Shown piece by piece: positions 1-64,000 of a stretch of DNA of 64,000 bases (its first letter is position 1; each line of letters begins with the position of its first letter). The DNA is from Candidatus Saccharimonadia bacterium. Its GTDB lineage: Bacteria > Patescibacteriota > Saccharimonadia > UBA4664. The stretch is from the NCBI GenBank assembly GCA_038245115.1, contig JBBRSS010000005.1, positions 3,141 to 67,140 of the forward strand. The letters are read 5' to 3'. The notes below the pieces were generated by a model, which was given only the letters and a program-made list of their open reading frames with translations, did not search any database and was not told the origin of the DNA. Both the position numbers and the translations under genes were made by a program.

Positions 1-468
1 GCCTCTTTATACTCTGCGTCTGTTTCGTACTTGATACCGTCTTTTTCAAAGGCTTCTTTGAATCCTTTTAATGATTTGTCTGAAATGTCATGATGAAGCA
101 TCATTTTTCTCCTTAATCTTCTTATCTTGATAGATATCGTAGATGAGTTGGGCGAGAGCTAGGGCATCACGCTCCCTTAACTCTTCCACGGTTGGTTCAT
201 GCGGCTTTTGTTCAGTTTTCTTTGGTTCGTATGCCATATAACACCTCCTTTATCCAATGATTACGAGACACTTCTGAATATAGCCCTTTTGTGTCCCATT
301 TGTCCCATTTTTCAGTACCACACCTCTGTTAAAGGGTTCGTGACCCGTATGGGGACGGATATCCAGCGGCTATTACTAGATGCGGCGAGCCATCCGGAGG
401 CGTAATATAGTGATGGATGGGGCGTGCCCACGGAGTGAGTTGTACAATCAAGAAAAGGGAGTATTGAG

Positions 469-38705: not shown

Positions 38706-38707
38706 GA

Positions 38708-41179: not shown

Positions 41180-43050
41180 TATTGTTCCTCGCCTGCGGCC
41201 GGTTGGGGATTCTTGGTCCCGCCGGGATTAGTTGATATGAGCTCGGTCTCGGTATCGGACGCTAAGATGCGGATAATTACATGGTTGAGGCCGGCAAAGA
41301 AGAGGCCCTCGCCTACCGGGAATTGGCTGAGGCGGTTTTTCTCCCCTTCGGTGAGTTTGAAGGTCTCGGCGATGATGTCGGTGGCGCTGGGGGCCTGCTT
41401 GAGGAGGAGCTGGAGGGATGAGTTGGCGACTACGGCCCGGCCCATTTTGCTGCCCAAGAAGTCCTCGACGTCTTGCGAGATGGTGGTGAGGCCGAGGTAA
41501 TACTTACGGGCGCGTTTGGCGAGCGAGAACATGAAGCTGGCGGAGTCGTCATACTTCATGAGCTGCCAGGCTTCATCGACTATGAGCAGGCGTTTGCGGC
41601 GGTCGGATTTGACTTTGTTCCAGATGTAATTGAGCACAATGTACATACCGACGGGGCGGAGGGCGTCTTCGAGGTCGCGGATGTTGAAGACCAGGAAGGG
41701 GTTGTCGAGCTCTACGTTGGACTGTTCGGAGAAGATGCCCGAGAACGTGCCGGTGGTGTACTGGCGAAGGCGCTGGGCGAGACTGGCGCCGGTGCCGGTC
41801 ATAGAGGCAAGCGTGTTGTAGAGGTCGTTCATGGTAGGCGGGGTGGCGCTGTGGGTGAGGGGGTCACGGGTGATGCCGGCGCGGGCGTAGGTGTTGATGA
41901 TGGCGGCGTCTAGATCGGCTTCTTCGCCCGGGGTGAGGGGGCTAGAAAGGGTGGCGCCGGTGGAGGTGTTGACGGTAGCGCCACCCATCATTAGCCGCAG
42001 GAGGCCGTGGAGCGAGATAATGTTGGCCTGGAGGGCGTTGTCGGCCTCATCTTGGTCGAAGACGCGGGGAAGGTCGAAGGGGTTGATGCGGGTTTTGGAG
42101 GCTAGGCTGAGACGCAGGTAGGTGCCGCCGACGGCGTCGCAGAGCGGCTTGTACTCATCTTCCGGGTCGATGATGATGCATTCGACGCCCATCATGAGGC
42201 TGCGCAGAGCTTCCAGCTTGATGGCAAAAGATTTGCCGGCGCCGGACTTGGCGAAGACAACCATGTTGGCGTTTTCGAGGCTGAATCGGTCGAAGAGAAC
42301 GAGGCCGTTGTTGTGACGGTTGAGGCCATACAATATGCCCTCGTTGCGCGAAAGGTCGGATGAGGTAAAAGGAAAGCTAGTGGAGAGGGCGCCGGTGTTC
42401 ATGTTGCGCGAGATCTGCATTTGGTCGGTGCCGAGCGGGGTGGTGGAGTTGAAGCCCTGCTCCATTTGCATGGTGGTGGGCTTGGTGTAAACCAGTGATT
42501 GGCCAAAGATGCCTTCGATTTTACGGGTGACTTGAGTAAGGTCCTCGATGGTGTCGGCGTACATGGTGAGGTAAAGACCAAAGCGGAAGAAGCGCTCCTC
42601 CCCTACTTGGAGCTTGTCGCGCAGTTCTTCGGCGTCCTGAATGGCGGCTTCGAGTCCAGGGTCGCGCACGAGACCTTTTTCTTGGTTGATGGTGTGGCTG
42701 GCCTCGAGTTGGCCCATTTTGCGCTTGAGGTTGGTGAGTACAATTTGGCTTTCCACCGGGTAGATAAAGAGTGAGATATCGATGAGCTCATCAAGGTTAA
42801 TGATGGGCGATAACCAGCCGGTGAAGACTTGGCGGGGGTAACCGTAAACATAGATGGTTTTGCAGTAGCGCTTGCCGAGGCGCAAATAGGCTGACTCGAC
42901 TTCGATAGACGGCGGCGCAATGAGGTCGCGCATCGTGACGATACCTTGGCGATAGATGAGGTCGGCTTCGCGAGATTCCATGGTTTTTTGCATGTGCTCA
43001 AGCTGGGCCTGATCGATCTGGGGTGTCGATTTTTTGCCAAATAATCCCAT
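41179..43050 (-). CDS. virB4: VirB4/TrbE/CagE-family T4SS ATPase (ATPase domain portion)
   Basis: Walker A 'VVFAKSGAGKSFAIK', Walker B 'LLIVDEAWQLM'; 623 aa. Confidence 0.85.
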   Translation of the reverse strand: MGLFGKKSTPQIDQAQLEHMQKTMESREADLIYRQGIVTMRDLIAPPSIEVESAYLRLGKRYCKTIYVYGYPRQVFTGWLSPIINLDELIDISLFIYPVESQIVLTNLKRKMGQLEASHTINQEKGLVRDPGLEAAIQDAEELRDKLQVGEERFFRFGLYLTMYADTIEDLTQVTRKIEGIFGQSLVYTKPTTMQMEQGFNSTTPLGTDQMQISRNMNTGALSTSFPFTSSDLSRNEGILYGLNRHNNGLVLFDRFSLENANMVVFAKSGAGKSFAIKLEALRSLMMGVECIIIDPEDEYKPLCDAVGGTYLRLSLASKTRINPFDLPRVFDQDEADNALQANIISLHGLLRLMMGGATVNTSTGATLSSPLTPGEEADLDAAIINTYARAGITRDPLTHSATPPTMNDLYNTLASMTGTGASLAQRLRQYTTGTFSGIFSEQSNVELDNPFLVFNIRDLEDALRPVGMYIVLNYIWNKVKSDRRKRLLIVDEAWQLMKYDDSASFMFSLAKRARKYYLGLTTISQDVEDFLGSKMGRAVVANSSLQLLLKQAPSATDIIAETFKLTEGEKNRLSQFPVGEGLFFAGLNHVIIRILASDTETELISTNPGGTKNPQPAAGEEQ

Positions 43051-43784
43051 TATACTGGTGCCCCTGGGAGCGGCCCGCGAGGAGCGGAACCAGTACCCTT
43101 GGTGACGGCGGGCGCGCCAATTTGGGAGGTATCGATGAGCTTCTGGTTGGCGGCGACGTCGGGGTTGTACCAGGAATAGTAAAGGTCTACCAGTTCCTGG
43201 GTGCCGAGCGAGATGGCTCGAACGCCCATCTGGGCCATGCCGTTGGCGGCCAAAGCCATGCGCTGCGATAGTTCTTGCTTGTGTTTATGAAAGTCTTCTT
43301 CGCTGATGGTGATCATTGGAGTGGTTTCAAAGGCACCTTTGAGCTTGTCGATCAAGTTGGAGCTTTTTTGCACGGCTGAGGGCGGAAAATATGGGATGAC
43401 CACGTAGAATTGCTTGTCCATGATGTTTACCTCTTCCACGAGAGCACGAATATTGGCGATGTAGTCTTCCATGAGAACCCCAAGAAGTTCGTTGGGCTGT
43501 TCGGCGCGTAACTTATCGAGCTTTTCAAGGTAGTTAGAAATATCGATTTTCTGGCTCTTAATAGATATTTGTACGGGGAAGTGCAGGGAATTGAGAAAGC
43601 CCTGATAAGCCGACTCTACTGCTTCTTGTTCGCTCGGGTTCATGAGATCAAAGTTGATGGCACTACTGAGGATGACTCCGCGCAGGGAGCCATCTTTCAT
43701 TACCACAATTCCATCCTTGATCTCGGCGATCAGGAGGGTATCTTGGGCACTCTTTCCGCTGTGGTTACTGGCGTTAGCTGCCAT
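43050..43784 (-). CDS. VirB4 N-terminal-domain-like protein, apparently a split-off N-terminus of VirB4
   Basis: 'LLIAEIKDGIVVMKDGSLRGVILSSAINFDLMNPSEQEAVESAYQGFLNSL' resembles the conserved N-terminal region of Gram-positive-type VirB4 homologs. It is TAATG-coupled to the ATPase ORF. Confidence 0.45.
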   Translation of the reverse strand: MAANASNHSGKSAQDTLLIAEIKDGIVVMKDGSLRGVILSSAINFDLMNPSEQEAVESAYQGFLNSLHFPVQISIKSQKIDISNYLEKLDKLRAEQPNELLGVLMEDYIANIRALVEEVNIMDKQFYVVIPYFPPSAVQKSSNLIDKLKGAFETTPMITISEEDFHKHKQELSQRMALAANGMAQMGVRAISLGTQELVDLYYSWYNPDVAANQKLIDTSQIGAPAVTKGTGSAPRGPLPGAPV

Positions 43785-44583
43785 TTACGGGAATCTCCAA
43801 GGTTTGTCCGTTTGGCAGCTGAACCCGGCGGGTTGCCTGGGCAGCAAGCTGCGTCACCGTTAACTCATCACTCTGCGTTGCTAGTTGGATTATATCGTTT
43901 GGGGGCGCTACTGTCACGCCGCTTATGCTTGTAGGAGCTGGGGCACCTTTGGTGGGGCGAGCCACTTTGCCGGTCATTTGCTGGAGGGCTTCCTGGCGAA
44001 CATCTTCGGCCGAGGCACGGAGTAGTTCGGCCAGGTTGAGCGCGAGTGGGCTTTGTTGGAGGTCGAGGATGTCGTTGGGTACTTCGCCTGGTATGGGTGG
44101 CGGTGTTGGAACTATGCGGTCGGCGTGGGCAACAGAGGGCGCAATCGGGGATGTTTCCGGCACCTGAGGGTGGTTCCAGCCGCGCGAGTCGATGAGACTG
44201 GCGAGTTTTTCGAGCTCACTTCGAACTTCGTCGGGGTTACGTTGGGTAGCTTCGGCGGCGAGTACGGTGGCTTCCACGTGGAAGGTCTCGATGATGTCGT
44301 CTTTGGCCCAGGCACGGTGGCGAGACGTGGCAAAAAAGCCGACCATAGCAACCAATAGCTGCTCAAAACTCTGGCCGTCGCGATTGTAGAAGGCTAGCAG
44401 GAATAGTAGTAGTGCGGGCGGGAAGCCGATGACTATCAACAGTATGGGAACCTGGCGAAACAGCGCGAAACTGATGGCTGACCAACCAAAACCCATCAAG
44501 AAGTAAATAAACTCCTTGAAAGTTAACGGGCCAAGAATCTTGTCCTCGGCCTCAACATTTTGCGGCACCTTATACTGGCCCAT
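43774..44583 (-). CDS. VirB3/PrgI-like two-TM T4SS protein with a C-terminal extension
   Basis: 'NVEAEDKILGPLTFKEFIYFLMGFGW' followed by two TM helices, typical of VirB3-like proteins; 269 aa. Confidence 0.4.
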   Translation of the reverse strand: MGQYKVPQNVEAEDKILGPLTFKEFIYFLMGFGWSAISFALFRQVPILLIVIGFPPALLLFLLAFYNRDGQSFEQLLVAMVGFFATSRHRAWAKDDIIETFHVEATVLAAEATQRNPDEVRSELEKLASLIDSRGWNHPQVPETSPIAPSVAHADRIVPTPPPIPGEVPNDILDLQQSPLALNLAELLRASAEDVRQEALQQMTGKVARPTKGAPAPTSISGVTVAPPNDIIQLATQSDELTVTQLAAQATRRVQLPNGQTLEIPVNGS

Positions 44584-44640
44584 AAACTAGGAGCTCCACC
44601 TCGATATCACATTAAGCTTACGCTAAAACTAGGCGGGGGG

Positions 44641-47600
44641 CTAGGGGGTCGGAGGGGGCGGTTCTGGCGGAAGTACGGCGCCGTCTGAGTCGATATAAGC
44701 CTTGAGAATATCTGGCTGGCCGGTGCCGCCCTGTTTTTTTAGCCATTTATCTTCGGCTCCGGCCTTGTCACCTGCCTCCGCTATGAGCTTTATTATGTCT
44801 TTACCCGCTTTACCGTTTGATCCCTGTCGTGCGTTTAGAGCCCTGAGAGCCTTGGGGTCTTGCAGGTAGATCCACATTTGCGCATAGTCATCGGAATTCA
44901 GGTCCTTTAGAACCTGTGCGTTACTCAGAGATTGTTGGATGTTACGGGTGGATTCATCATAAATACTCGGCTTATCCACTCGTTTGGCGTATTCGAAATA
45001 GTTCTTTTTTTCGCCCCAACCGGATCGGCCAAAATCCGATGAACTGTAGCCATCGTAGGCTGCGTCTTCGGGCATAAAGAAGTCTTTGGAGACAGAGGAA
45101 CTGTTCTTTGATTGGATAATTTCCCAAAGTTCGCTGGCACGGCCGCCAAATCTATCGGGGTCGATTAAGCGGTCTTCGTTGCGCCCAAACAAATCTCTTT
45201 GGATTTGGCGAACTCTTTCTCGCCCGCTACCCGTTAGAGAAAGTCTTCCCATAAGCGCAATGGCACGATCCTCGTTTTCGGGTGTTAGTTTGTCGCCGTC
45301 TTTCAGGAGTGTTCTGATTTCAGCATCTTGGGCAGTAACTCCTTCTGGGCCTAAGTTGGCATTCTTAACAGTGTCGGTATGTGCGACTCCGTCAGCGTCC
45401 ATGAAGGTAAAGTCTTCGTTGCCAGCCTTTTCGACGCGATCACTTAGTATCTTTAAGCGCTCGGACTTGACTACATGGCCTTCGGCGGCTTGATAAGTTT
45501 GATTTAGCGATGCTCCGGGACGCGTAAGGTCGTAGCGGGCTCTGGCGGCGCCAGATTCGGCAGCTAATGTTGCTACGGAGCCTTCGGTTTGGGCGGCTAG
45601 GCGCTCTCGCGCATTGAGTCTGGTGGTAGAAGAATCAACCGCTTGATTGAGGGCGGCAGTTTGTGCTTGGTTGGAGGCTTCTGTGCGCATCGCCGATTCT
45701 TCTGCGGCTGTTGCGGCAGATGCGATTACAGCCTGTTCGCCTTCTATTGGATTTAATATTCCTGCGCTTGCGCTCGTGATTTTGTCGGCTGCTGCTCTGC
45801 CAGCTTTTTCGCCTCGTTCGGCACCGAGGGTATCTCGAGCCTTTGCGGCCTGGTTTCGTGCTTCCTTTTCGGTGAACAGGAGGGCTGCCGTATCCTTACC
45901 GTTCTTATCCTTTATCTTGGCAGTTTTAGCGGCTTTATAGGATTCTTCATAAGTGTCAGTGCGGGCGTTTTCATCGGCACGTTCATAGGCCGCTGCCTTG
46001 GCTTTTCGCAAGGGGGCTTCTCGGGCCTGCTCGATGGCCGCATCATATGCCTGGATAATACCCCTGTCTTTTGCAGTAGTCGTAGCAAATTCTGTGCTCG
46101 TAGCAATTTGTTTGGCGCGGGCGGCGACTTTGAGATTATCGGCGCGGACTTTCTGGGCCGCGGCCGCGGTGGTGATGCCGCCTACAGCAGCGGCGGCGGC
46201 AATTTCGGCATTGACGGCGGCGGCGGTAGTTTTGACGGCAGCGTCGGAGATGGCGGTGGTGCGTTCGGCGGCGTAGACGGCAGCGTCGGTGTGTTGGCGG
46301 GTGGAGGCGGCGGTGCCGGTGCGCACGGCGTTGACGGCGGCGAGGCGTTGAGCGGAGTCTTGCGCTGTTTTAGCTTTGGCGGTTTCGGTACCGGCGATTA
46401 CGTGGTCTGCCAGTCGGGGGGCAGGGTTGCCGTCACGCTTGGCTTTGGCGATATCCTCTTCCTCCTGGGCGATCTCTTGTTTTTGGGCTCCGATGCTCGT
46501 ACCGATACGTTTATTGGCTTCGCTTCGACTAGCTCTCATGGTGTCTGATGTCGACAGGTAGCCTTCGGGTGTGGCCTGGAAGTCGGCGCGGGCCTCACGA
46601 ATAGTGCGGGCGCTGGCTAGTTGTTCGCGGGCGGCTAGCGTTTCGCCGGTAACGAGTTTATTGAGATTTTCTTGTCCCGAAGCTGATGTGATGGCGTTGC
46701 GGGCGTTGATTTGGCCTTCGGTGGCCCCAATCTTTTCGCGTTCTTGGGTATGGGTGGCGGCGGACAGGTTTTGCAGTCGCATACTGCGGGCCTCTGCCAG
46801 ACTGACGCCACCGGCATGAGCGGCCTCTCGTGCATCGAGGGCGGCATTGGTGGAGACGTTGGTATTGGCGGTTTGTTGGGCGGCTACAACTTCTGCTACG
46901 CCGGTGTTGGTTTTGGCGGTAGTGACATTTCGCAGGCGCATATTCCGCGCGTCGGTAGCGCTGATACCGAGGTTTTTTTGCATAATCTTTTCCGCTGCGG
47001 CGCCGCCCTCAACTACGGAATTGATTCCAGCAAGCTTTTCCGAAGCTGAAAGAGCAGCGGTTGTCTGTGCGGCAGACACCTTTTTGGCGGCGCTAACGTA
47101 TTCGCTCGTACCCTTGAGGCTCTCGTTGAGTTTATCGCGCTCAATGTCGCCTTTGGCCGTGCCTGCGGCGGCTAAGTAGGTGTCACGGGTATTAATGCGT
47201 GCCTGGTTTTGTTTGTCTAACGCACTCGGCTTTCCGGCACCGTTGTAGCCCGCTAGGACGCCTTCGCGCGCACCGCGGTTGGCGGCTTTTTCATCGAGGA
47301 TGCTCTGAGTGGTGGACAGGCGGCGTTGGCGGAAGTCTTCGGGCCTAGCCTCTTTGGACATGCGGTTATCGGCATCAATTGTGCTTAATTCTTTATCGGC
47401 TTTGCCCACGGCTTCGCCGCGTCTTAGCTTTGCACTACCGGAACTTCCCGACAGGCCGGCTCGGCGCCAGTTCATGGCAGCTTTGCGGTTGAGAGCGGCT
47501 TTATGTAAGCCGTGGGCGTTTTTGGCATTGCTCTCGGCAATCTTGGCAGCGGCGACATTTTTGCGCTGGCGGCCTTCGGAAAGGTCTCTGGCGAGATCGC

Positions 47601-49278
47601 TGTCTTTGCCGTAGCGCTTGTCGACAGCGCCACCGAGCTTGCCGATGGCACCACTTCCCATTGCGAGGCCCTTGCCGGCGAATTTAAACGCGAACGGGAC
47701 GACAAATAGCGGGACGGTGAGTCCGGCGATGGCAAAGAATGGTGCAATCCAAGCGGCTCCCGTGAGACTACTGCCTGCACCGGCAGTCTTGGAAAATAGT
47801 CGACCGATCTCGATGAGCAGCATGATGATTGGATACAGCATGACGAGCTTGAAAAAGTTCTGCCACCATTCCCGGAACCATTTTTCGGTGTTGGGCAGAA
47901 TCCAGAGTAGGATCGCAAACGGACTGATGACAATAAGCATCAGAATTAATATTTTGCGGAATATCAGAGTGAGGAACACGCCGGCGAATGCGATGAGAAG
48001 CGAGACTATGGCACAAAAACCTAGGACGGTAACGGCCCCAACTAAAGCAAAGGTGCCAAGGCCGCCGCCGGTTCCAAGGAATAGTGTGGTGAAGTTGGAG
48101 GTAAGGTCGATTGTCGGCGTACCAATAACATCGGTCATGAGCGAGACGAGACCTTGGCCGAGTACGTTGCCGATGTCAATTAAGAAGGCGCAAAGCTGCC
48201 AGGAGAATGGCACCAGTATAGCTCCCGCCACCAAATGCGGTAAAACTTTTTTGATAGTGTAGTTGTCGAAGCCAATAGCCGTGCCGATGATGACGAGGAA
48301 GAATATAAGTATAAAGAAGACACTCGCGACATTTCTGAAAGCAGACCAAATGGCGTATACGGGTTTAACGTCAGTTTGGTTTTTGTCGAGCGGGGGCTCT
48401 TTGAGGAACGGTATGATGATGTCGTCACGGATTTGGTCGACTACACCTACAAGTGTAGTAATGGCGTCGCAAATCAGCCAAGTGAAACGGGCAGCCTCAC
48501 AGTTGACGGGCTTCTCTGCTGCGGACGTTGCGGACGTTGTGGGCGTTGTGGGCGAAGGCGGAGCGGTGCCCTGCTGGAGCGTAACGGAGTTGGTGCCGGC
48601 TGCTAGAACAACACCTGTTTTGGTGATGTTTATGCCAGTGGTTAAGCCGGTCGGGCTCCGGTATTGGCCGGAGGCTTTAACGGTGTATGTGCCCGGCTTG
48701 ATGCCACTAATCGAGAATGTGCCATTGGTGATTGGGGCCGGACTAGGCGTGCCGGAGTTGGGCGTAAGGGTAACGAAACCAGATTGCACACTTACGAACT
48801 GTTTGGCTGCAGGGTCGTAGAATTGTACCGTACCACTAAGACTGGCGTTTTTAACGGCTACCTTGATAGGGGTGACCGTAATGGTTCTTTTAGTCAACGT
48901 ATTGGATGGAGCGCACACGCCAGTTGCGCTGCCGAGTATTGTTCCCCAGGTTGTAGAGCTCGTAGGGCTACCGGTAGCGTCCGTTACCGAAATATTGAAG
49001 CGACGGATGTTTGTACAGGCGTCGCCAACGCCGGAATTAGTGAAGCCGATGGGGCCCGATTTCCAGGTCTGAGATGCGCTATCGAATGTGAAATTAATGA
49101 AAACAGGTTGTTGGGTAGTATCTACGCGTCTAGCCGATACTTCGACGTTGCTAACCTTGGGGTTTAACGTTATTTCGAATGATGCGTCTCCGGGGGCGCC
49201 CATAGCTGGAGCTGAAGACAACAAAACAGATATGCTCGAAAAAAGCGCGAGAAAAATTCCGAACCACCTACGTCTCAT
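44641..49278 (-). CDS. Giant VirB6/TrbL-like polytopic membrane protein (1545 aa) with an N-terminal secreted beta-rich domain and a ~700-aa Ala/Lys/Glu-rich low-complexity region
   Basis: Signal peptide. A ~6-8 TM block ('ISPFAILLWILPNTEKWFREWW') is VirB6/TrbL-like. A long A/K/E/T-rich tract follows, then a C-terminal globular domain. A 9-bp x4 tandem repeat at ~48523-48560 encodes a Pro/Thr linker. Confidence 0.5.
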   Translation of the reverse strand: MRRRWFGIFLALFSSISVLLSSAPAMGAPGDASFEITLNPKVSNVEVSARRVDTTQQPVFINFTFDSASQTWKSGPIGFTNSGVGDACTNIRRFNISVTDATGSPTSSTTWGTILGSATGVCAPSNTLTKRTITVTPIKVAVKNASLSGTVQFYDPAAKQFVSVQSGFVTLTPNSGTPSPAPITNGTFSISGIKPGTYTVKASGQYRSPTGLTTGINITKTGVVLAAGTNSVTLQQGTAPPSPTTPTTSATSAAEKPVNCEAARFTWLICDAITTLVGVVDQIRDDIIIPFLKEPPLDKNQTDVKPVYAIWSAFRNVASVFFILIFFLVIIGTAIGFDNYTIKKVLPHLVAGAILVPFSWQLCAFLIDIGNVLGQGLVSLMTDVIGTPTIDLTSNFTTLFLGTGGGLGTFALVGAVTVLGFCAIVSLLIAFAGVFLTLIFRKILILMLIVISPFAILLWILPNTEKWFREWWQNFFKLVMLYPIIMLLIEIGRLFSKTAGAGSSLTGAAWIAPFFAIAGLTVPLFVVPFAFKFAGKGLAMGSGAIGKLGGAVDKRYGKDSDLARDLSEGRQRKNVAAAKIAESNAKNAHGLHKAALNRKAAMNWRRAGLSGSSGSAKLRRGEAVGKADKELSTIDADNRMSKEARPEDFRQRRLSTTQSILDEKAANRGAREGVLAGYNGAGKPSALDKQNQARINTRDTYLAAAGTAKGDIERDKLNESLKGTSEYVSAAKKVSAAQTTAALSASEKLAGINSVVEGGAAAEKIMQKNLGISATDARNMRLRNVTTAKTNTGVAEVVAAQQTANTNVSTNAALDAREAAHAGGVSLAEARSMRLQNLSAATHTQEREKIGATEGQINARNAITSASGQENLNKLVTGETLAAREQLASARTIREARADFQATPEGYLSTSDTMRASRSEANKRIGTSIGAQKQEIAQEEEDIAKAKRDGNPAPRLADHVIAGTETAKAKTAQDSAQRLAAVNAVRTGTAASTRQHTDAAVYAAERTTAISDAAVKTTAAAVNAEIAAAAAVGGITTAAAAQKVRADNLKVAARAKQIATSTEFATTTAKDRGIIQAYDAAIEQAREAPLRKAKAAAYERADENARTDTYEESYKAAKTAKIKDKNGKDTAALLFTEKEARNQAAKARDTLGAERGEKAGRAAADKITSASAGILNPIEGEQAVIASAATAAEESAMRTEASNQAQTAALNQAVDSSTTRLNARERLAAQTEGSVATLAAESGAARARYDLTRPGASLNQTYQAAEGHVVKSERLKILSDRVEKAGNEDFTFMDADGVAHTDTVKNANLGPEGVTAQDAEIRTLLKDGDKLTPENEDRAIALMGRLSLTGSGRERVRQIQRDLFGRNEDRLIDPDRFGGRASELWEIIQSKNSSSVSKDFFMPEDAAYDGYSSSDFGRSGWGEKKNYFEYAKRVDKPSIYDESTRNIQQSLSNAQVLKDLNSDDYAQMWIYLQDPKALRALNARQGSNGKAGKDIIKLIAEAGDKAGAEDKWLKKQGGTGQPDILKAYIDSDGAVLPPEPPPPTP

Positions 49279-54914: not shown

Positions 54915-55007
54915 GGAGAGGTACCCAAGTGGCTGAAGGGGCGGGTTTGCTAAACCTGTAGGGGGGAGTAATCCCCCGCGAGAGTTCGAATCTCTCCCTC
55001 TCCGCCA
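54915..55007 (+). tRNA. tRNA-Ser (anticodon GCU), class II with a long variable arm
   Basis: Sequence GGAGAGGTACCCAAGTGGCTGAAGGGGCGGGTTTGCTAAACC... The acceptor stem GGAGAGG pairs with CCTCTCC. The anticodon loop is TTGCTAA. There is a long variable stem (GGGGGGAG/CTCCCCC region), a T-arm GTTCGAATC and an encoded CCA. Confidence 0.85.
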
Positions 55008-57665: not shown

Positions 57666-57764
57666 AAGTTTAGCCGCCTATTGTTAGAGCAAGAATTGGC
57701 GGAACACACGGGTCTGGAACTCAGAATATGTATCAATTTTTTACACTTTACAGATAATAATGGG

Positions 57765-57808
57765 ACAAATGAGACACAGAACACCTATATGCGTCGTGTC
57801 TCATTTAT
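57765..57808. repeat. Palindromic element copy 1: AAATGAGACAC-N18-GTGTCTCATTT
   Basis: Reads GGGACAAATGAGACACAGAACACCTATATGCGTCGTGTCTCATTTATAGG. The 11-bp arms are perfect reverse complements. Confidence 0.6.
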
Positions 57809-57840
57809 AGGTAGCTAGTAATGTTTTTGGGCTTTTGCGG

Positions 57841-58905
57841 CTACGCTGCTGAGCTCTGTTCTTTGTCGTTGTATGTTGGTCGCGCTTCGGCAGGTGCAGC
57901 AGCAGGTAACTGATATAGCTTATCTGCGCCTAGGTCTGCAACGATTTGACTGCGTACGGCTTCCATTTTGATCTTGTATTCTTCACGAGCAGCTACAACT
58001 TCAGAGGCTTTCTTGTCGAGCATAGCCTGTAGCATTTCCTTAGCAGCGTCACTACTTGCCGTAGCAAGCCGCTCCTCAAGTTTGATAATTTCATCGCCAA
58101 AGACTTCATCTGTAATTGTTTGCAGCTCTGCAACGCCTGCTTCTCCCACGGCAATTTTTTCCTCTACAGTAGCTTTTGCCTGCTCAAGGTCAGTAGAAAA
58201 CTTTGCGTATTCCGTTGCGTGTATACCACGAATGCCTTTTAATAGTCCGAGTGAGTCGTTTGTCTCGCGGAAGTTCTCGACAAGGTCAGGATGATTGTTG
58301 AGTAGATTATCGAAGTCTCCGCTCATTAGTAGTCCAGAACTATCTGTATAGCCACCGGTATCACGGCCGCGATGTACGCGGTTTCCGTCAACATCATGCA
58401 TGACTCGCTTATTCTCAACGCTGAACATCTCGTATTTACGAAAACGTTCCATCGCACTAACGTGTGTATTGGCGTCTGCTACGCCGCCAAGCGTTTGATC
58501 CAATCGCTCTGCAAGTGCGGCCATCGGCTCGGCTTTTATTGCTCCGTAAAGTTCTTTTTGCTCGCTTTTCTCTGGGGCAAGCTTTTGTATAACATCCTGA
58601 AGCGTACCTGCTCGCCGTCCATCTTTGTCATAGCCTTGCATTGCATCGAGGAACTTGTCTGCTCCATAACGATCAACCATTACTTGAAGTCCTGCACCTA
58701 TAATACTACCCTCAAGTCCTCGCTGTACCTCGTCTATACCATGTAGCTCGCCGGCTTTTTGTTGTAGGGTGTCAATATCGCTTTTTTCAAGAGTTTTCTC
58801 TTGCTCTAGAAGCATAAGTCCAGTTTCAACAGGCGCATTTTGTTCAACCGTGTCGCTAGTTTGCTCTTGGGGTTGTTCTGGTGTCATTCGGATGAGTTCA
58901 CTCAT
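57841..58905 (-). CDS. Hypothetical protein in the lower-GC segment
   Basis: 354 aa (MSELIRMTPEQPQEQ...). Predicted helical; no recognisable motif. Confidence 0.4.
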   Translation of the reverse strand: MSELIRMTPEQPQEQTSDTVEQNAPVETGLMLLEQEKTLEKSDIDTLQQKAGELHGIDEVQRGLEGSIIGAGLQVMVDRYGADKFLDAMQGYDKDGRRAGTLQDVIQKLAPEKSEQKELYGAIKAEPMAALAERLDQTLGGVADANTHVSAMERFRKYEMFSVENKRVMHDVDGNRVHRGRDTGGYTDSSGLLMSGDFDNLLNNHPDLVENFRETNDSLGLLKGIRGIHATEYAKFSTDLEQAKATVEEKIAVGEAGVAELQTITDEVFGDEIIKLEERLATASSDAAKEMLQAMLDKKASEVVAAREEYKIKMEAVRSQIVADLGADKLYQLPAAAPAEARPTYNDKEQSSAA

Positions 58906-59203
58906 GCTTTCCTTTTCCCTTGTAGTGTTATTTTAGTTGTTTGTTTTTGTTCTAACCTGCTAACAATATAGCATACGTAGGTAATATTGTCAAGGTAACG
59001 CAACCGTTCGGGGAGGTTCACTATTGAAATCACAAGAAACTAAATAGCCAGTAGTTTATATTCGGAGACATATCCTGTACTAGTTGGCCCATGTTGTTTT
59101 ACAATATATTCCTCTTCTAGGAGTATGTCAGTGTAGTCAGCCTCTAGGTGGCCGATTGTTAAACTCCTGGACTTTGTACCCCATTGCGGTACATTGTCCT
59201 TGT

Positions 59204-59983
59204 ATGGAATCAATCGTATCCCAACAGACACCACAGGTAGCAAAAACAGCACTGATTCGCTGGTGTTTGTACGCTCGCAAATCCAGCGAGCAAGACGAAC
59301 GCCAAGCCTTATCAATCGAGCAACAAATCAAGGAAATGCTACTACTTGCCGACCATTGGGGCATAGAAATAGCCGAAGTTCGCAAAGAGAGTCATTCCTC
59401 CAAAGAATCAGGCACTAGGCCGATCTATAACCGACTTATTAAGGACATTCAACTTGGCTACTTCAACGGAATTGTGACATGGGCACCTGATAGGTTGTCC
59501 CGAAATGCCGGTGACCTTGGTATTCTGGTAGATTTGATGGATCAGGGTAAGCTCGCGGAGATCCGCACTCACGGTCAAACGTTCACTAACTCGCCAAATG
59601 AGAAGTTCCTGCTGATGATTCTTGGCTCACAGGCCAAGCTAGAGAACGATAACAGAGGCCTCAATGTCATCCGGGGACTACACAACAAAGCCGCCAACGG
59701 CTGGAGACCTGGAGTTGCGCCGATCGGCTACCTGAATAATGGTCTCGGCGATGAGAAGATAATTGTCGATGAAATTCGATCACCGATCATTGTAGAAATG
59801 TTTGAGAGAGTCGCCAAACAAGCCTACACCGGCCGGGAAGTAAAACGCTGGCTCGATGGCATAGACTTCGTAAGCAGACATGGTAAACGCCTCGTCTTAA
59901 GCCATATTTACCGTACGCTAAAGAATCCCTTCTACTACGGCGAGTTCCAATACCCCAAGACCAGCGAAACGATGCATCACTGA
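59204..59983 (+). CDS. Large serine recombinase, N-terminal catalytic (resolvase-type) domain; the ORF ends at an in-frame TGA
   Basis: 'TALIRWCLYARKSSEQDERQ' has the Ser nucleophile in a YAR-x-SS context. 'GIVTWAPDRLSRNAGDLGILVDLMDQGKLAEIRTHGQ' is a resolvase motif, and the recombinase-domain motif begins at 'GWRPGVAPIGY'. The likely start is the ATG at 59204; the track begins at 59084. Confidence 0.6.
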   Translation: MESIVSQQTPQVAKTALIRWCLYARKSSEQDERQALSIEQQIKEMLLLADHWGIEIAEVRKESHSSKESGTRPIYNRLIKDIQLGYFNGIVTWAPDRLSRNAGDLGILVDLMDQGKLAEIRTHGQTFTNSPNEKFLLMILGSQAKLENDNRGLNVIRGLHNKAANGWRPGVAPIGYLNNGLGDEKIIVDEIRSPIIVEMFERVAKQAYTGREVKRWLDGIDFVSRHGKRLVLSHIYRTLKNPFYYGEFQYPKTSETMHH

Positions 59984-60568
59984 AAACATGCACCGATAAT
60001 CAGCAAAGATCTGTTTGACGAAGTCCAGATCCAGCTGACGGTAGCCCCAAAGGCTCCAGCAGGTACCAAAGAGTTTAGTTTCACTAGGATGATCAAATGT
60101 GGTGTTTGTAAAACGGGTGTTACAGCAGAAGAAAAGTTGAAGAAGCTCAAAACTGGCGAGATCAGACGGTATGTGTACTACCACTGCGGTAGGGCAAACG
60201 ATCTTGACTGCATCCAGCCATACATTCGCGAAGGCGAACTGATGATCGAGTTGCTTAATGTTATCGATGAGCTTGAAATAGATGAAATAGGTGCTCACCA
60301 ACAGTTCAAAGAAGAACTCATACGATATGAGAGGTTTATAGGCGTATTAGAGCAAAGTAACAATAGTAGTTCTCAAAAAACCAAGCCAACGATCGATCTG
60401 AAAGCATACTCAAAGTATGTGCTGCAACATGGAACTAAAGAAGAAAAGCGTGAGATTCTCCAATATGTAACCGGCGAATTATTCCTCAAAGATCAAAAGG
60501 TCTATGTTGAGCGAAAAACGAGGTCTAAAAAGTTTATCCCGGCCAGTTCGAATCCCATCGCCATCTGA
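59984..60568 (+). CDS. Large serine recombinase, C-terminal recombinase/zinc-ribbon portion, same frame as the N-part
   Basis: The region immediately after the TGA reads 'KHAPIISKDLFDEVQ', typical of large serine recombinases. It is followed by a zinc ribbon 'CGVCKTG...YYHCGRAND' and a coiled-coil. The track ORF starts at 60089. The 59984-60088 interval is 35 in-frame codons with no stop. Confidence 0.55.
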   Translation, partial: KHAPIISKDLFDEVQIQLTVAPKAPAGTKEFSFTRMIKCGVCKTGVTAEEKLKKLKTGEIRRYVYYHCGRANDLDCIQPYIREGELMIELLNVIDELEIDEIGAHQQFKEELIRYERFIGVLEQSNNSSSQKTKPTIDLKAYSKYVLQHGTKEEKREILQYVTGELFLKDQKVYVERKTRSKKFIPASSNPIAI

Positions 60569-60738
60569 ACGGGAATGGTCAAAATTCACGCACCACATAA
60601 CATTTTGCGGTAATTAAAAACGACCTTGTACCTTTAGTATGCACTTTAGGTGGACGGGTCGTTTTAGAACTTTATTCTTGGCGGAGCAGCCGGGTCAGGA
60701 ACTTTCCGACTGTCTCAAGGATTATATCCCTTAAGGAG

Positions 60739-60791
60739 GAAATGAGACAAATAAGACACTATAAAAAGGGGATTGTTTCGTGTCTCATTTC
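60739..60791. repeat. Palindromic element copy 2: GAAATGAGACA-N31-TGTCTCATTTC
   Basis: Reads GGAAATGAGACAAATAAGACACTATAAAAAGGGGATTGTTTCGTGTCTCATTTCGAAG. It shares its arms and a loop ACAC(C)TATA core with copy 1. Confidence 0.6.
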
Positions 60792-60924
60792 GAAGCCCTC
60801 GTAGCCTTGACTTGACTGAATCGCTATTACAACGCATGGGCTAGCGTTCTGACCTTTTAATCCGCTTAAGCTTGCATTATCAGATAGGGAGAGTAGTTAA
60901 TGGTGCCTTAAATAGGAATAAATC

Positions 60925-61088
60925 ATGGTACAAATTAGCAAACAGGATCTCGAAGAATTTAAGCGTATTACTAGGGAAATGCGTGACCTAGAGTTTCCCA
61001 ATGATGAAGCGGCAATGCGGGCAGCTCAGAGGCTAGTCCGTTTGTTCGAAAAGAGACGCACCCTAAAACTTCCAACTTTGAAGTCTTA
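60925..61088 (+). CDS. Small ORF (54 aa), speculative
   Basis: Reads MVQISKQDLEEFKRITREMRDLEFPNDEAAMRAAQRLVRLFEKRRTLKLPTLKS. A 9-bp stem hairpin GCACCCTAA...TTAGGGTGC at ~61055-61095 overlaps its stop. Confidence 0.2.
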
Positions 61089-61107
61089 GGGTGCGGCCCG
61101 ACCGAAG

Positions 61108-61743
61108 TCAGGCCTGCTCCTCGAGAATTCCTTTGGACCTCAAGAAGTCTTCGGGATCTTCGACCCCGTTCTCGATCAGGAGCGTGAAGGCGCAGCCAAG
61201 CGCCTCATCCATTGGCATTATAGCCAGTTCCTCGCAATCCTCAGCTGAGAGCACCTCGCCGCAGACATTGGCAAGTTGCTCGCTGGTTGGCTCTTTGGTG
61301 GCCACTTCTGGGATTCTTTCGCCGTCGGTTTGAACACCTAGTGCTTCTTCCAAAACCGGCATAACGTCTGCAAAGCCCATATTGTCGGCATAGGTCAGTG
61401 CATCCTGCAGATCTTCGGCGTAATTCTCGCTCCGGCCGCCATCACGACGAATCAGACCCATTTGCACAATCAGGCCAATCTGAGCTTTCGCAAAGTCATC
61501 ACCCTCTCGTTGATTGACTACCTCTTCGGCGAGCAAGTGGTAGCGAGTAGCCAACTCTTTGACATCAGCACCGGCCGACATGGCTTCAACCAGCTGTCCA
61601 CGGAGCTGGCCCAGTTCTTCCGTCTCAACAAAGCCCAATGTTTCAGGCAGAGCGTCAATGGCAGGTCTTGCCTCCATTTCGGGGCTCCTTTCAGAATCTG
61701 GTGGCTGTGAAGAATCAAAGCCTAATGGATGTTCATGCTCCAT
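61108..61743 (-). CDS. Hypothetical acidic protein downstream of the zinc-ribbon gene
   Basis: 211 aa, very acidic and helical. A 5-nt gap separates it from the upstream gene. Confidence 0.4.
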   Translation of the reverse strand: MEHEHPLGFDSSQPPDSERSPEMEARPAIDALPETLGFVETEELGQLRGQLVEAMSAGADVKELATRYHLLAEEVVNQREGDDFAKAQIGLIVQMGLIRRDGGRSENYAEDLQDALTYADNMGFADVMPVLEEALGVQTDGERIPEVATKEPTSEQLANVCGEVLSAEDCEELAIMPMDEALGCAFTLLIENGVEDPEDFLRSKGILEEQA

Positions 61744-61748
61744 AGCCT

Positions 61749-63194
61749 CTATTCTAACTTGTCTTTGGCGTCAGTTCTCCTTATTTCTCGGCCCAAGCTG
61801 TCTTTTTTGACGTTAGGGATCTCTTCTTTACCGCTGCTCATCTTAAAATCGAATGTCCGGATAAAGTCAGGCACTGAGTCATCATTATCGCGCATCGGTA
61901 TGATCACTCGGAGTAGCGGATTCATTTTGGATCGAATAAAAGGAATACTGGTCGACTTTTTCTTGCCGCTCTTAAGGGTGATCTCGGCTGGTACCGAATC
62001 CAGAGTCATATTGTGCAGGTAAACCAGGGACGATTCACGAAGGTTGCGCTCTCTTGGGCTCAGCGTTGTCGGTGGATGATCCGGCAGTTCTTCAACTGGC
62101 TTCGCTGTTGGTGGCGGTAAGGTGCCATGCTTGGCTTTTTGCTCGATTAGCTTCCGTAGTTCATCTTCGCTTTCGTAGGCTCGGAGCCGACCGGTCAAAT
62201 AGCCAACTCGGTAACTCACCCCCTCGCTCATCAGTCGCCAATTTGTGTCTTCAAGGGTCTTACCGATCAGTTTTTGCAGATCTTTTTTGCTGTTATATTC
62301 TTCACGCTCTGGTTTAGCGTCTAGGCAACTGAAACCAACAGCCACCTCGCGGCCTAGCTGCGGCTGATCCAGCTTAAACTCGGTGTAGCTAGCTTTCTCT
62401 AGGATTGGTTTCAAGATCTCAGCCAACTGAGCAATTTTGAGCTTCTTGATATCTTTGATGGTCTCATAGATATCGGTATGCACAGCTTGATCAGCGACGG
62501 TAGCCTCGAGCTTCATTAGACGCTCGAGATGACGGCGTTTCTGCTCGTACTTAAACATCATGTCACTATCGAAGACAAACCGCTTATTATCCAGCTCATA
62601 GTTAGGATCGGGTGGCTCTTCTTCGGTACTTCCACCAAGCTCAAAGCTGTCTTGGTAACTATGTCCACATTTTGGGCATTTGTAGGTAATTGTGACAATC
62701 TTGTTATCAGTTTTGCCGGTATGATCCATTGATTCGCCGCATTTCTCGCATAAGGTCTTGGCACCCTCCCACTCGGTGCCGTCTTGCCAGTAAGCCTGGC
62801 GCTTATTGCAGCTATCACACTCAAACATCAGTAGGATATCATCTTCATTGCGACCCTCGCGACGCATATAGTTCTTGCTAATCACCCGCATATCTTTGCC
62901 GCAACTGCGGCAGTACATACTACCCTCGACGTGGGCGTTAGCTAAGACACGGTCTTTCTCTTCGTCCCGAGCCAGCCAGTCATTGATGGTCTGATCACCC
63001 TTTACTGCTCGCGCGGCTGCCTGGGACTCAACGAGGCCAAAATAAAGCTGGCTATAGAACAAGTACCAGGCAGGACGACGTTGTTCAATTTCTGACGGTG
63101 GCACTTTCCGTTCCATCTCGCGGAAAGTGCCATTAACTATTCGTTCGCCAGAGCGACAGCCCTCAACTGTGATCTCGTCATAGACGATCCTCAT
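61749..63194 (-). CDS. Zinc-ribbon-rich protein (four CxxC pairs), tightly linked downstream of the reverse transcriptase
   Basis: 'CRSCGKD ... CDSCNK ... CEKCGES ... CPKCGHS' form two probable zinc ribbons. The C-terminal half is helical and charged; 481 aa. It lies 19 nt after the RT stop. Confidence 0.5.
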   Translation of the reverse strand: MRIVYDEITVEGCRSGERIVNGTFREMERKVPPSEIEQRRPAWYLFYSQLYFGLVESQAAARAVKGDQTINDWLARDEEKDRVLANAHVEGSMYCRSCGKDMRVISKNYMRREGRNEDDILLMFECDSCNKRQAYWQDGTEWEGAKTLCEKCGESMDHTGKTDNKIVTITYKCPKCGHSYQDSFELGGSTEEEPPDPNYELDNKRFVFDSDMMFKYEQKRRHLERLMKLEATVADQAVHTDIYETIKDIKKLKIAQLAEILKPILEKASYTEFKLDQPQLGREVAVGFSCLDAKPEREEYNSKKDLQKLIGKTLEDTNWRLMSEGVSYRVGYLTGRLRAYESEDELRKLIEQKAKHGTLPPPTAKPVEELPDHPPTTLSPRERNLRESSLVYLHNMTLDSVPAEITLKSGKKKSTSIPFIRSKMNPLLRVIIPMRDNDDSVPDFIRTFDFKMSSGKEEIPNVKKDSLGREIRRTDAKDKLE

Positions 63195-63212
63195 ATCTTT
63201 TACGATCCATGT

Positions 63213-64000
63213 CTAATCCTCCTGCTTGGTTAATGCCTTTATTGTAATAAGCTGGCTCAGCTCATATGCGTCGGCGTGAGAGCACAACCCAACGTAAGAC
63301 GTCAGACTGATGATATCCACCCTCTCGAGCGCTCGTAGCTTGGTCTTGTGGCGCAGAACGATACATTGAGGCTTGAGCACATAGCCCAAGAAGTCTATTC
63401 CCTGACCCCAGCTCCGGATGGTGATCTTATTGGGGTGGATCGTAAGACCCAGCCGCACACTTAAGAACTGAGTAATCGGCTCAATCAAATCGAGTAAATG
63501 CTGTCGGTTGGTACTGAGAACAATGAAATCATCACAGTAGCGCAGATAATGCCTCTCACGTAAGCGATTCTTCACGAACCAATCAAACTCATGCAAGTAA
63601 ATATTAGCAAAGAGCTGGCTGGTGAGATTGCCGAGTGGAATACCTTTGCCTGGGCTTGTAGAGAGGCTGTCGATTATCGTTTGAAGCAACTTGAGTGTAT
63701 CTGCGTCAGTAACTTTCTGCTTCAGTAGATCCATAAGAATCTCGTGATCAACCGAGGCAAAGAACTGCTTCACATCACACTTGAGGGCGTACACCGTTTG
63801 GGTGTTGTTATGGCTAGCTTGTCGCAAGAAGGTTCGCAAACGCCTAACTGCCGCGTGAGTGCCTTTTTTCTTGCGGCAGGAATAGCTGTCATAGATAAAC
63901 TGGCGTTCGAATAGTGGCTCAATGGCACTAACGAGCGCCTGATGAACTAAGCGGTCTTGGACAGTAGCCTTATGGATTCGGCGCGTTTTTGGATCGCAAA
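63213..64000 (-). CDS. Reverse transcriptase with diversity-generating-retroelement (DGR)-type signatures; the 5' end runs off the window
   Basis: Manual translation beyond the track ORF gives ...DPKTRRIHKATVQDRLVHQALVSAIEPLFERQFIYDSYSCRKKKGTHAAVRRLRTFLRQ... This covers RT motifs 1-2 ('KCDVKQFFASVDH'), motif 4 'GIPLGNLTSQLFANIYL' with SQ in place of the QG..SP of group II introns, motif 5 'RYCDDFIVL' (YxDD), and a thumb 'IRSWGQGIDFLGYVL'. Confidence 0.7.
   Translation of the reverse strand, partial: CDPKTRRIHKATVQDRLVHQALVSAIEPLFERQFIYDSYSCRKKKGTHAAVRRLRTFLRQASHNNTQTVYALKCDVKQFFASVDHEILMDLLKQKVTDADTLKLLQTIIDSLSTSPGKGIPLGNLTSQLFANIYLHEFDWFVKNRLRERHYLRYCDDFIVLSTNRQHLLDLIEPITQFLSVRLGLTIHPNKITIRSWGQGIDFLGYVLKPQCIVLRHKTKLRALERVDIISLTSYVGLCSHADAYELSQLITIKALTKQED

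Follow-up and report, generated by a model that had tools for sequence, protein, structure and literature searches.

The 64 000-nucleotide (nt) stretch of Candidatus Saccharimonadia DNA analysed here (contig JBBRSS010000005.1, positions 3,141 to 67,140; hereafter the window) contains two palindromes, designated c1 and c2, that bracket a gene for a serine recombinase. The best explanation of the whole, to which we assign a probability of about 0.6, is a family of small integrative elements of Patescibacteria that encode large serine recombinases (LSRs) and are marked by a conserved end module. Each palindrome is most likely the inner part of such a module, which is ~115 nt long and would form the left (distal) end of an element. 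An initial annotation, made from the sequence alone, had proposed the palindromes as crossover sites of the hix, res or att type for excision or inversion of the DNA between them; their variable arm spacing, the lack of a right arm in 52% of copies and six breakpoints located elsewhere indicate that they are very probably not. Instead, c1 and c2 are most likely the homologous left ends of two adjacent elements and not the attL/attR pair of a single one; the recombinase would lie between them because each of two neighbouring elements contributes its left end.

Direct reading of the window located the arms of c1 at 57762-57777 (GGGACAAATGAGACAC) and 57796-57811 (GTGTCTCATTTATAGG) with a loop of 18 nt, and those of c2 at 60738-60749 (GGAAATGAGACA) and 60779-60795 (CGTGTCTCATTTCGAAG) with 29 nt between them. 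The palindromes of the initial annotation are real, with GAGACA-N8..38-TGTCTC occurring exactly twice in the 64 kb against 0.03 occurrences expected from shuffled sequences, but its positions were ~3 nt off at c1 and its c2 loop was 31 nt. The perfect 11-bp arms it had described are reduced to 10 nt common to both copies (AAATGAGACA / TGTCTCATTT), the eleventh pair (an extra C:G) being present in c1 only, and both loops do contain ACAC(C)TATA. The interval of ~3 kb was correctly said to hold only an open reading frame (ORF) of 354 amino acids (aa) on the minus strand and the recombinase gene, and to be AT-rich: its GC content is 45.7% (57812-60738), below that of the window as a whole (53.1%) and of the left (51.8%) and right (49.2%) flanks. 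Nor are the palindromes simple intrinsic terminators, as no terminator-like site was called at c1 or c2. A search of the window for further copies, allowing one mismatch, identified a third, c3, on the minus strand at ~265-310, and all three copies align in register as ATGRGACAAATRRGACAC-N18/19/20-GTGTCTC.

In each palindrome the second member of a pair of tandem 9-mers (AAATGAGAC AAATGAGAC AC) serves as the left arm, and the module as a whole consists of a junction box, a spacer of 27-140 nt, the tandem 9-mers (AAATGAGAC twice) and, in about half of the members, an inverted copy (GTGTCTCATTT) 7-37 nt further on. The canonical array is written AAATGAGACAAATGAGACAC, as distinct from the variants AAAGTGACA and AATGCGACA, and NNNGNGACA is a general form that covers any tandem 9-mer variant. 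A degenerate 18-mer core was searched against IMG/VR and species-representative genomes (596 Gb), resulting in 16 stretches from IMG/VR and at least 120 from genomes; the genome statistics given here are based on the 120 listed 8-kb tiles, and individual loci are referred to by L numbers.

The junction box is 24-26 nt long with the consensus TGGCGGARCA-N4-GGTCWGGAAC (32 boxes were aligned across the family), and in the window the boxes are located 36-45 nt upstream of c1, c2 and c3. The reverse complement of the box reads GTTCCAGACC + 3 + 7 + G + CCA, which is the length and the ending of a tRNA from T loop to CCA (...TCCGCCA); the tail of the tRNA-Ser in the window, GTTCGAATCTCTCCCTCTCCGCCA, served for comparison. 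Copies of the motif near tRNA-Ser genes have boxes starting TGGCGG, and those near tRNA-Gln genes boxes starting TGGCTG. The resemblance is limited to the 3' 24-25 nt of a tRNA, with the T-stem partner usually absent, and no direct repeat of a nearby tRNA tail adjoining a module was found at up to 5 mismatches in 24 nt. A tRNA or tmRNA gene at the module itself was rejected, as ARAGORN and Rfam identified only the tRNA-Ser at 54915-55007 in the window. Genes starting at a fixed distance of ~30 nt outside the box, as seen at c1, L192 and L010, were also discounted; an ORF lay within 140 nt at 20 of the 32 boxes, which is not clearly above chance.

Comparison of loci that share one side of a module revealed where the mobile DNA ends. 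Six independent pairs of loci become homologous from the outer edge of the box onward, which is situated 40-165 nt upstream from the motif, and in no pair does the breakpoint fall in the palindrome. Synteny between the window (60672-64000) and its closest relative, a Candidatus Saccharimonadia metagenome-assembled genome (MAG; L192, 87-89% identity over this interval), stops at the c2 box, and the other side of the box in L192 is occupied by a short-chain dehydrogenase (SDR) gene. Breakpoints at the box were likewise found in the pair L008 and L014, in the pair L152 and L199, and in the set L098, L133 and L010, in which one Woesebacteria MAG, one Paceibacterota MAG and one IMG/VR contig have a 118-nt unit in common (100% identity) but differ in the DNA on both sides. 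A fifth case, L204/L205 against L206, was found with a 24-mer of the c1 box, which has two unrelated left flanks in metagenomes. For c3, homology with the IMG/VR locus L003 (window 355-7) begins inside the box. The box coincides with a boundary of mobile DNA and adjoins an LSR gene, two characteristics of an att site.

The recombinase is assigned to the LSRs by its domains (PF00239, 7e-20; PF07508; PF13408), and among solved structures in the PDB the integrases YokA of SPbeta and Int of TP901-1 are its nearest relatives. An in-frame TGA (59981-59983) occupies the position of a glycine that is invariant in three intact homologues, for which a single GGA to TGA change would suffice, and the gene is therefore probably a dead pseudogene. 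Recoding of TGA (genetic code 25 or 4) was rejected since other long ORFs, and the recombinase gene with its own stop, use TGA as a stop. The ORF extends 17 aa at its C-terminus beyond the ends of the homologues, and this extension includes a fragment resembling a tRNA T arm and acceptor end that could be a relic of an earlier att core.

Association of the repeat with recombinases, which the initial annotation had seen at one locus, was found elsewhere: six of seven motif-bearing viral contigs were among 52 LSR-homologue loci, and 17 of the 120 listed tiles contain an LSR homologue. Three viral loci found through the motif alone encode LSR catalytic domains 60-67% identical to that of the window. 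Motif and LSR gene are co-oriented in 27 of 28 pairs (18 of 19 in listed genome tiles and 9 of 9 in loci ascertained by their LSR). The LSR gene may end 28-256 nt before a module (L095, L098, L152 and c2 in the window) or start 89-205 nt after one (L090, L116, L162, L152 and L199); elsewhere it starts a few kb further on.

The tRNA genes within 5 kb downstream of the motif are mostly on the opposite strand (21 versus 3 on the same strand) and include Ser (eight), Gln (eight), Arg (three) and others, and a convergent tRNA gene follows 95-190 nt after the LSR gene in at least 6 of 48 LSR homologues. The arrangement expected of a tRNA-targeting integrative element (an integrase end, a proximal tRNA gene and a distal repeat resembling a tRNA 3' end) was recognised in the related loci L026, L116, L090 and L197. 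On the viral contig 3300033402_000781 the junction on the LSR side, GTTCCACTTTCTATCTGGC abutting GGAGAGGGTGGGATTCGAAC, runs into a tRNA-Ser gene, and the far junction reads ...ACTTTGGC abutting GGAACACTCGGGTCTGGAAC. The attP rebuilt from L026 and L008, GTTCCACTTTCTATCTGGC joined to GGAACACTCGGGTCTGGAAC, is a 40-bp imperfect palindrome of the form GTTCCA-N28-TGGAAC.

Because of this anatomy (breakpoints at the box, mimicry of a tRNA end, and association with LSR and tRNA genes), the box may be regarded as an LSR half-site: in LSR elements that use tRNA 3' ends as insertion targets, it would supply the element's own half of the distal junction. An element would be composed of the box, the spacer, the 9-mers with or without the inverted copy, cargo genes and an LSR gene reading outward, followed by the 3' end of a tRNA gene on the opposite strand. 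The LSR would recombine an attP, whose element-side half is the box with its likeness to a T loop and acceptor end, with the 3' end of the tRNA gene. Crossover would take place in or next to the boxes, ~60 nt upstream of the palindromes, and repeated insertion at one place would result in elements stacked head to tail.

Stacking of this kind is suggested by the arrangement of the loci. Modules are co-oriented in eight of the nine listed tiles that hold at least two, and in L152 the order is LSR, module, LSR. In a Saccharibacteria MAG (L197, 2600-5000) three modules succeed one another, with one or two small convergent ORFs after each, and tRNA-Gln and dnaX come next; this 8-kb tile contains no recombinase and is similar to a cassette array.

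Several observations weigh against the proposed family or its boundaries. A recognisable box is present within 170 nt in only 32 of 141 family members, and most LSR-homologue loci have no motif within 10 kb. The palindromic form of the rebuilt attP is clear in one contig only (L026/L008), and the arm on the LSR side in the window does not mirror the box. No empty site was found for the element predicted between c1 and c2 (element A); L192 lacks this element and also the left flank of the window; the DNA to the left of c2 is different in L192, with an SDR gene that is absent from the window, and the boundaries of element A consequently rest on analogy. Neither the predicted circle junction of element A (...GTTTTAGAACTTTATTCTTGGCG joined to GAACACACGGGTCTGGAACTCAG...) nor the predicted empty site (...TTGTTAGAGCAAGAATTGGCG joined to GAGCAGCCGGGTCAGGAACTTTCC...) was present in IMG/VR. 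No intact tRNA gene was found on the expected side, neither in the window nor in the 4.4 kb that follow in L192; the predicted gene would lie beyond position 64000.

Within the window, the segment at 57.70-60.68 kb is probably a single integrated LSR element delimited at the boxes (element A), based on the spacing of the boxes, the GC content of 45.7% and the recurrence of the order box, motif, LSR and next box in L152, L098 and L095. It is most likely an older, inactivated insertion, with the c1 box as the presumed element-side half of its attL. A second element (B) most likely starts at c2 and continues beyond position 64000, and a third, read leftward past the edge of the window, most likely has its end at c3. 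Evidence of excision was sought at the level of reads. The assembly graph of SRR19962014 (Logan contigs) branches at 57696-57724, but the 24-mer responsible recurs in other elements (L204-L206), and the branch is for that reason not evidence of excision.

Table 1. Features of the end modules and of the putative elements in the window
Feature	Position	Strand	Basis or remark
Putative element A: c1 end module, 354-aa ORF, probable LSR pseudogene, right arm	57700..60681 (~2.98 kb)		Ends placed inside boxes
c1 junction box TTGGCGGAACACACGGGTCTGGAACT	57696..57721	+	Direct repeat, 85% identical to 60678-60703, spacing 2982 bp
c1 tandem 9-mers TAATGGGAC-AAATGAGAC-AC	57758..57777	+	Second 9-mer is left palindrome arm
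c1 inverted copy GTGTCTCATTT, right arm	57796..57806	+	Loop 18 nt
354-aa ORF, putative cargo of element A	57841..58905	-	Convergent on c1; stop 34 nt from hairpin
LSR gene	59204..60568	+	Pfam Resolvase, Recombinase and Zn_ribbon_recom
tRNA T-arm-like fragment CCAGTTCGAATCCCATCGCC	60543..60562	+	Within LSR 3' extension; resembles tRNA-Asp tail beside LSR in L036
c2 junction box TTGGCGGAGCAGCCGGGTCAGGAACT	60678..60703	+	Putative left end of element B; L192 synteny stops here
c2 tandem 9-mers AAATGAGAC-AAATAAGAC-AC	60740..60759	+	Sequence
c2 inverted copy GTGTCTCATTT	60780..60790	+	Sequence
54-aa ORF, N-terminal domain of SKExIDEFKxIYKKEYGKELSDxEA... small-protein family	60925..61089	+	Neighbour clustering; family beside motif in 20 loci
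Defence-type reverse transcriptase ORF, putative element B	63213-63839	-	PADLOC RT / DRT UG17, UG4, E ~1e-30; PHROG reverse transcriptase
c3 junction box (reverse complement CCGTCCCCATACGGGTCACGAACCC)	334..358	-	Alignment of window copies; L003 homology begins inside
c3 tandem 9-mers AAATGGGAC-AAATGGGAC-AC	291..310	-	Sequence
c3 inverted arm GTGTCTC	265..271	-	Loop 19 nt; then ribosome-binding site AAGGAGG and start codon at 237

The 354-aa ORF of element A gave no match in Pfam, PHROG or PADLOC. A homologue of the 54-aa ORF that follows c2 also follows c3; the SKExIDEFK family to which it belongs had no Pfam or PHROG assignment, and a word-based search found four database relatives. In element B the reverse transcriptase gene adjoins a gene for a 481-aa zinc-ribbon protein. 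The region 61749-63194 is identical to L203, a Logan contig of SRR19962014, except for a 1-nt indel that splits the 481-aa ORF into 86 and 377 aa, which could be either strain variation or an assembly error. In L047 (253-2175, minus strand) an OLD/GajA/AriA-like ATPase gene directly follows a variant end module, which indicates that elements carry anti-phage defence genes.

About 72 of the 120 listed genome stretches have titles of Patescibacteria lineages, including Paceibacterota, Saccharibacteria, Kaiser-, Magasanik-, Uhr-, Woese-, Falkow-, Doudna-, Dojka- and Gracilibacteria and others; outside the Patescibacteria there were a few Dehalococcoidia and Acidobacteriota among the listed matches. 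The number of genome stretches (at least 120 in 596 Gb) is near the ~140 that we estimate for a random pattern of 33 bits. The hits nevertheless share more than the pattern, with AAA before the core, recurring upstream boxes and an inverted arm within 60 nt in 57% of copies compared with ~6% by chance. Arm spacings cluster at 7-8, 11-12, 17-22 and 37 nt, and 73 of 141 copies (52%) have no right arm within 48 nt. The motif is not a many-copy repeat of the REP type, a possibility by which the initial annotation would have been undone: there are one to three copies per locus, at least two modules in 9 of the 120 listed tiles, and three in the window, all at predicted element ends. Neither the module nor the recombinase had a match in 50,697 GenBank phage records. 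In a literature search the core sequence appeared in no paper, nor did any paper combine Patescibacteria, serine recombinase and integrative.

Two groups of matches concern the taxonomic range. Six Dehalococcoidia MAG loci (L113, L132, L138, L146, L174 and L175), with several copies per genome, have the same tandem 9-mers and a 37-nt loop before GTGTCTCAT, which shows that the motif is not confined to the Patescibacteria. MAGs labelled 'uncultured Gammaproteobacteria' (TPA co-assemblies; for example, L096, L118, L152 and L162) contain modules and LSRs of the type found in candidate phyla radiation (CPR) bacteria and a tRNA-Ser 82% identical to that of the window; their contexts look the same as the CPR ones, and these labels look unreliable.

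For the 9-mers themselves, we tentatively favour an operator-like function, at clearly less than even odds. The tandem and inverted copies would form a cluster of sites for one sequence-specific DNA-binding protein that may control transcription across the element end, including that of the LSR gene where it follows directly. This is close to the shared operator that the initial annotation had offered as an alternative, which is retained here as an operator-like array. In variant elements all copies of the 9-mer change together (L047 has AAAGTGACA twice and an inverted GTCACTTTT, L045 has AATGCGACA twice), and this joint change, the lack of covariation between the arms and the variable spacing suggest a recognition site for a protein. 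Promoter-like hexamers overlap the array in c3 (GGGACA-18-TATATT, oriented like the motif and directly before a ribosome-binding site and start codon) and in c2. Candidates for the binding protein are the LSR, the SKExIDEFK small protein and a small-terminase-like helix-turn-helix protein (~10 loci).

Against regulation of this kind are the absence of a -10/-35 pair at a fixed position across the family, the orientation of the next gene (39 cases on the motif's own strand, 55 on the other), which argues against a simple rightward promoter, and the lack of a recognised DNA-binding domain in the SKExIDEFK proteins encoded near many copies. A fixed sigma-70 promoter was rejected, since c3 fits but hexamer position is not conserved and gene orientation disagrees. 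Also rejected were a phage promoter of the SP6/T7 type, with which the motif shares GACACTATA (common to SP6), as TATA directly follows the core in only 32 of 138 copies; tiny peptides starting at an ATG in the motif (MRQMRHYKKG...), as the variation is non-synonymous (Arg/Gly) and the frame is lost through the A run; and DnaA boxes, as the CACA end of their consensus is unmatched.

A less probable role, though one that keeps some credit, is that of an accessory recombination site bound by the LSR or a directionality factor, comparable to res II/III, the lambda arm and Xis sites or P2 Cox sites. Seen from the box, the array is always found toward the interior of the element, and it has the orientation of the LSR gene; it is also retained in the tiny units of L197 that lack an LSR as well as in the decayed element A. 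Copies of the 9-mer co-vary in L045 and L047, they resemble a resolvase half-site, and no protein other than the LSR is shared by element A, L047 and L116. Arm-type, Xis and Cox arrays and phage operators likewise consist of tandem direct repeats of ~9-10 bp by the crossover region, some overlapping promoter-like hexamers; the recombinase class is different here, however, and the distance to the junction is variable, with 40-165 nt between box and array and no helical phasing, which also speaks against a phased architectural site. The LSRs of phiC31, Bxb1 and TP901-1 are not known to need accessory DNA beyond sites of ~40-50 bp. The 18-mer is, moreover, identical between elements whose LSRs are only 44-56% identical, and most LSR-homologue loci lack the array.

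Doubtful to a greater degree is a packaging site (pac/cos, with a small terminase) or an origin from which the excised circle would be replicated or transferred. At ~10 loci the module is followed by a small protein, a ParB_N-methyltransferase, a small-terminase-like protein of the HTH_Tnp_1_2 type and a terminase, and pac/cos sites usually occupy that position in the gene order. Direct and inverted repeats beside an A/T-rich stretch would also be typical, and the array is kept in mini-elements without an LSR. The window, however, has three copies and no homologue of the terminase, the ParB-methyltransferase or the helix-turn-helix protein; the short repeats number only two or three, the neighbour clusters contain neither a relaxase nor a Rep gene, and GenBank phage records gave no match.

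About equally doubtful is an integron-like mode of gene capture driven by LSRs, in which small cassettes, some with defence genes (DRT-type reverse transcriptases, OLD/GajA ATPases), would be stacked at tRNA 3' ends. The module would tag each cassette, with the tRNA-mimicking box as half-site and the 9-mers as accessory sites bound by the LSR in a res-like synapse. Read in the direction of the tRNA gene, L197 and the minus strand of the window do resemble an integron array, with a tRNA gene followed by repeated units of gene(s), imperfect palindrome and junction box and with short, promoter-poor cargo. Unlike integrons, they have no IntI tyrosine recombinase and no attC R and L boxes, and whole small elements are stacked, some with a recombinase. 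In attC sites it is the structure that is conserved, whereas the palindrome arms here are conserved in sequence. Membership of the attC class was rejected, as there are no R''/L''-L'/R' boxes and the only recombinase is an LSR.

It is improbable that the array acts as RNA, whether as a bidirectional terminator, a 5' hairpin or the small structured RNA that the initial annotation had considered. On the minus strand c1 and c2 fold more stably than shuffled sequences (z = -2.4), the convergent 354-aa ORF stops 34 nt ahead of the hairpin, ATTTT closes many copies, and the flanking genes are on the opposite strand in the majority of cases. The module had no Rfam match, however, either at the gathering score or at E<=1, and covariation (0.093) was that of shuffles (0.091; 187 of 500 as high). 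Left arms with GG keep a right arm with TC and show no change to CC, and the arms are complementary only because both are conserved in sequence. Half of the copies (52%) have no hairpin, a terminator would not be expected to keep its sequence from one phylum to another, none was called at c1, c2 or c3, and the stems are A/T-rich at the base.

Crossover at the palindromes themselves, whether as attL/attR or as hix/res sites for excision or inversion of the 3-kb segment, is very improbable. Two dyad-symmetric direct copies do flank a recombinase, and the motif is tied to LSR homologues elsewhere. As in the class of Tn3/gamma-delta res and hix/gix sites, short half-sites that begin TGTCT and continue with A/T are found near a serine recombinase gene, and pairs of half-sites differ in spacing, as they do in res sites I, II and III. 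Crossover sites of serine recombinases nonetheless need a fixed geometry (for LSRs, an imperfect inverted repeat of ~40-50 bp around a central dinucleotide), while the arm spacing here is 7-37 nt with half of the family lacking the right arm, and the six breakpoints are at the upstream box and never in the palindrome. The arm TGTCTCATTT matches the half-site of Tn3 res site I, TGTCTGATAATT (PMC4499144), at 9 of 12 positions, but the polarity is everted, with TGTCT facing the loop here and the outside in res site I, and direct copies occur at 9-bp spacing. The LSR has no small-resolvase C-terminal helix-turn-helix, an attL/attR pair of an LSR would be hybrids and not two full palindromes, and a third full copy, c3, is located 57 kb away with no recombinase beside it. 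Membership of the res/hix class was rejected on the orientation of TGTCT and the adjacent enzyme being an LSR, and the resemblance to resolvase half-sites is treated as a lead only. Least credible of all is a generic dispersed repeat (REP/MITE-like) or a chance similarity unlinked to the recombinase: the 118-nt unit recurs with sharp edges in three unrelated contexts and the match count is near random expectation, but the matches share extended flanks, lineage and neighbouring genes, occur one to three times per locus and are oriented with respect to LSR (27 of 28) and tRNA genes (21 versus 3).

The proposed LSR elements resemble the prophages and islands of phiC31, Bxb1, TP901-1 and SPbeta (SprA/YokA) in having an enzyme with Resolvase, Recombinase and Zn-ribbon domains, a recombinase gene at the very end of the element by the junction, and a rebuilt attP that is an imperfect palindrome of ~40 bp. 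They differ from these in their apparent targets, which are tRNA 3' ends (Ser, Gln, Asp, Glu and Arg), in being often tiny and stacked, and in the conserved tandem 9-mer module 30-140 nt inside one end, DNA of a kind that LSR sites are not known to need. Targeting of tRNA 3' ends is typical of tyrosine integrases. Tandem accretion at one att site occurs in the integrative and conjugative elements and related mobilisable elements (ICE/CIME arrays) related to ICESt1 of Streptococcus thermophilus. Like these, elements A and B of the window and those in L152 and L197 are co-oriented head to tail with att-like bounds, and the integrase is dead or absent in some; those arrays have tyrosine integrases and identical core repeats, whereas LSRs, boxes only ~85% alike and a shared 9-mer array are found in the present family.

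By its domain content the enzyme is an ordinary LSR, integrative elements with serine integrases are already known as a kind, and nothing in this analysis has so far been shown to work in a new way. Two features are unusual: the apparent targeting of tRNA 3' ends, and a cis module that is deeply conserved and apparently undescribed. Mobile DNA of the CPR is almost undescribed, and the module provides a sequence handle with which such elements can be found and delimited and gene flow between phyla traced: the 20-nt core is identical from Saccharimonadia to Paceibacteria, Woesebacteria and Gracilibacteria, and the cargo includes anti-phage defence genes. If the boxes are LSR half-sites, the large serine integrases concerned would form a family directed at tRNA 3' ends, where tyrosine integrases are the usual occupants, and natural, highly conserved targets of such integrases would be of interest for the development of recombinase tools. 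A protein that reads the 9-mers would offer a concrete and testable way of approaching regulation in bacteria that are difficult to cultivate; if the 9-mers were accessory sites bound by the LSR, this would be a new mode of control for this class of enzyme.

Some further observations were made at related loci and elsewhere in the window. L010 (IMGVR_UViG_3300020195_001307) consists of a 9,117-bp unit head to tail, with the ORF pattern recurring at that offset, and is probably a small circular element assembled as a concatemer; its cargo includes methyltransferases, terminase-like genes and ribonucleotide reductase. A separate repeat family in IMG/VR (L002, L004, L006, L011 and L016) has three direct copies of GGGACAAAT, with TGTCCCATTTGTCCCAT ~70 nt further on and three copies of TGTCCCG at 11-nt spacing upstream, and looks like the iteron array of another mobile element. 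In the window itself, the region 36495-49278 (minus strand) is a block of large genes that looks like a type IV secretion or conjugation-like cluster. It includes a TraG/VirB4-type P-loop ATPase (41179-43050), a 1545-aa ORF with no Pfam match, and a fusion of glycosyl hydrolase 3, phage tail lysozyme and VanY (36495-38705).

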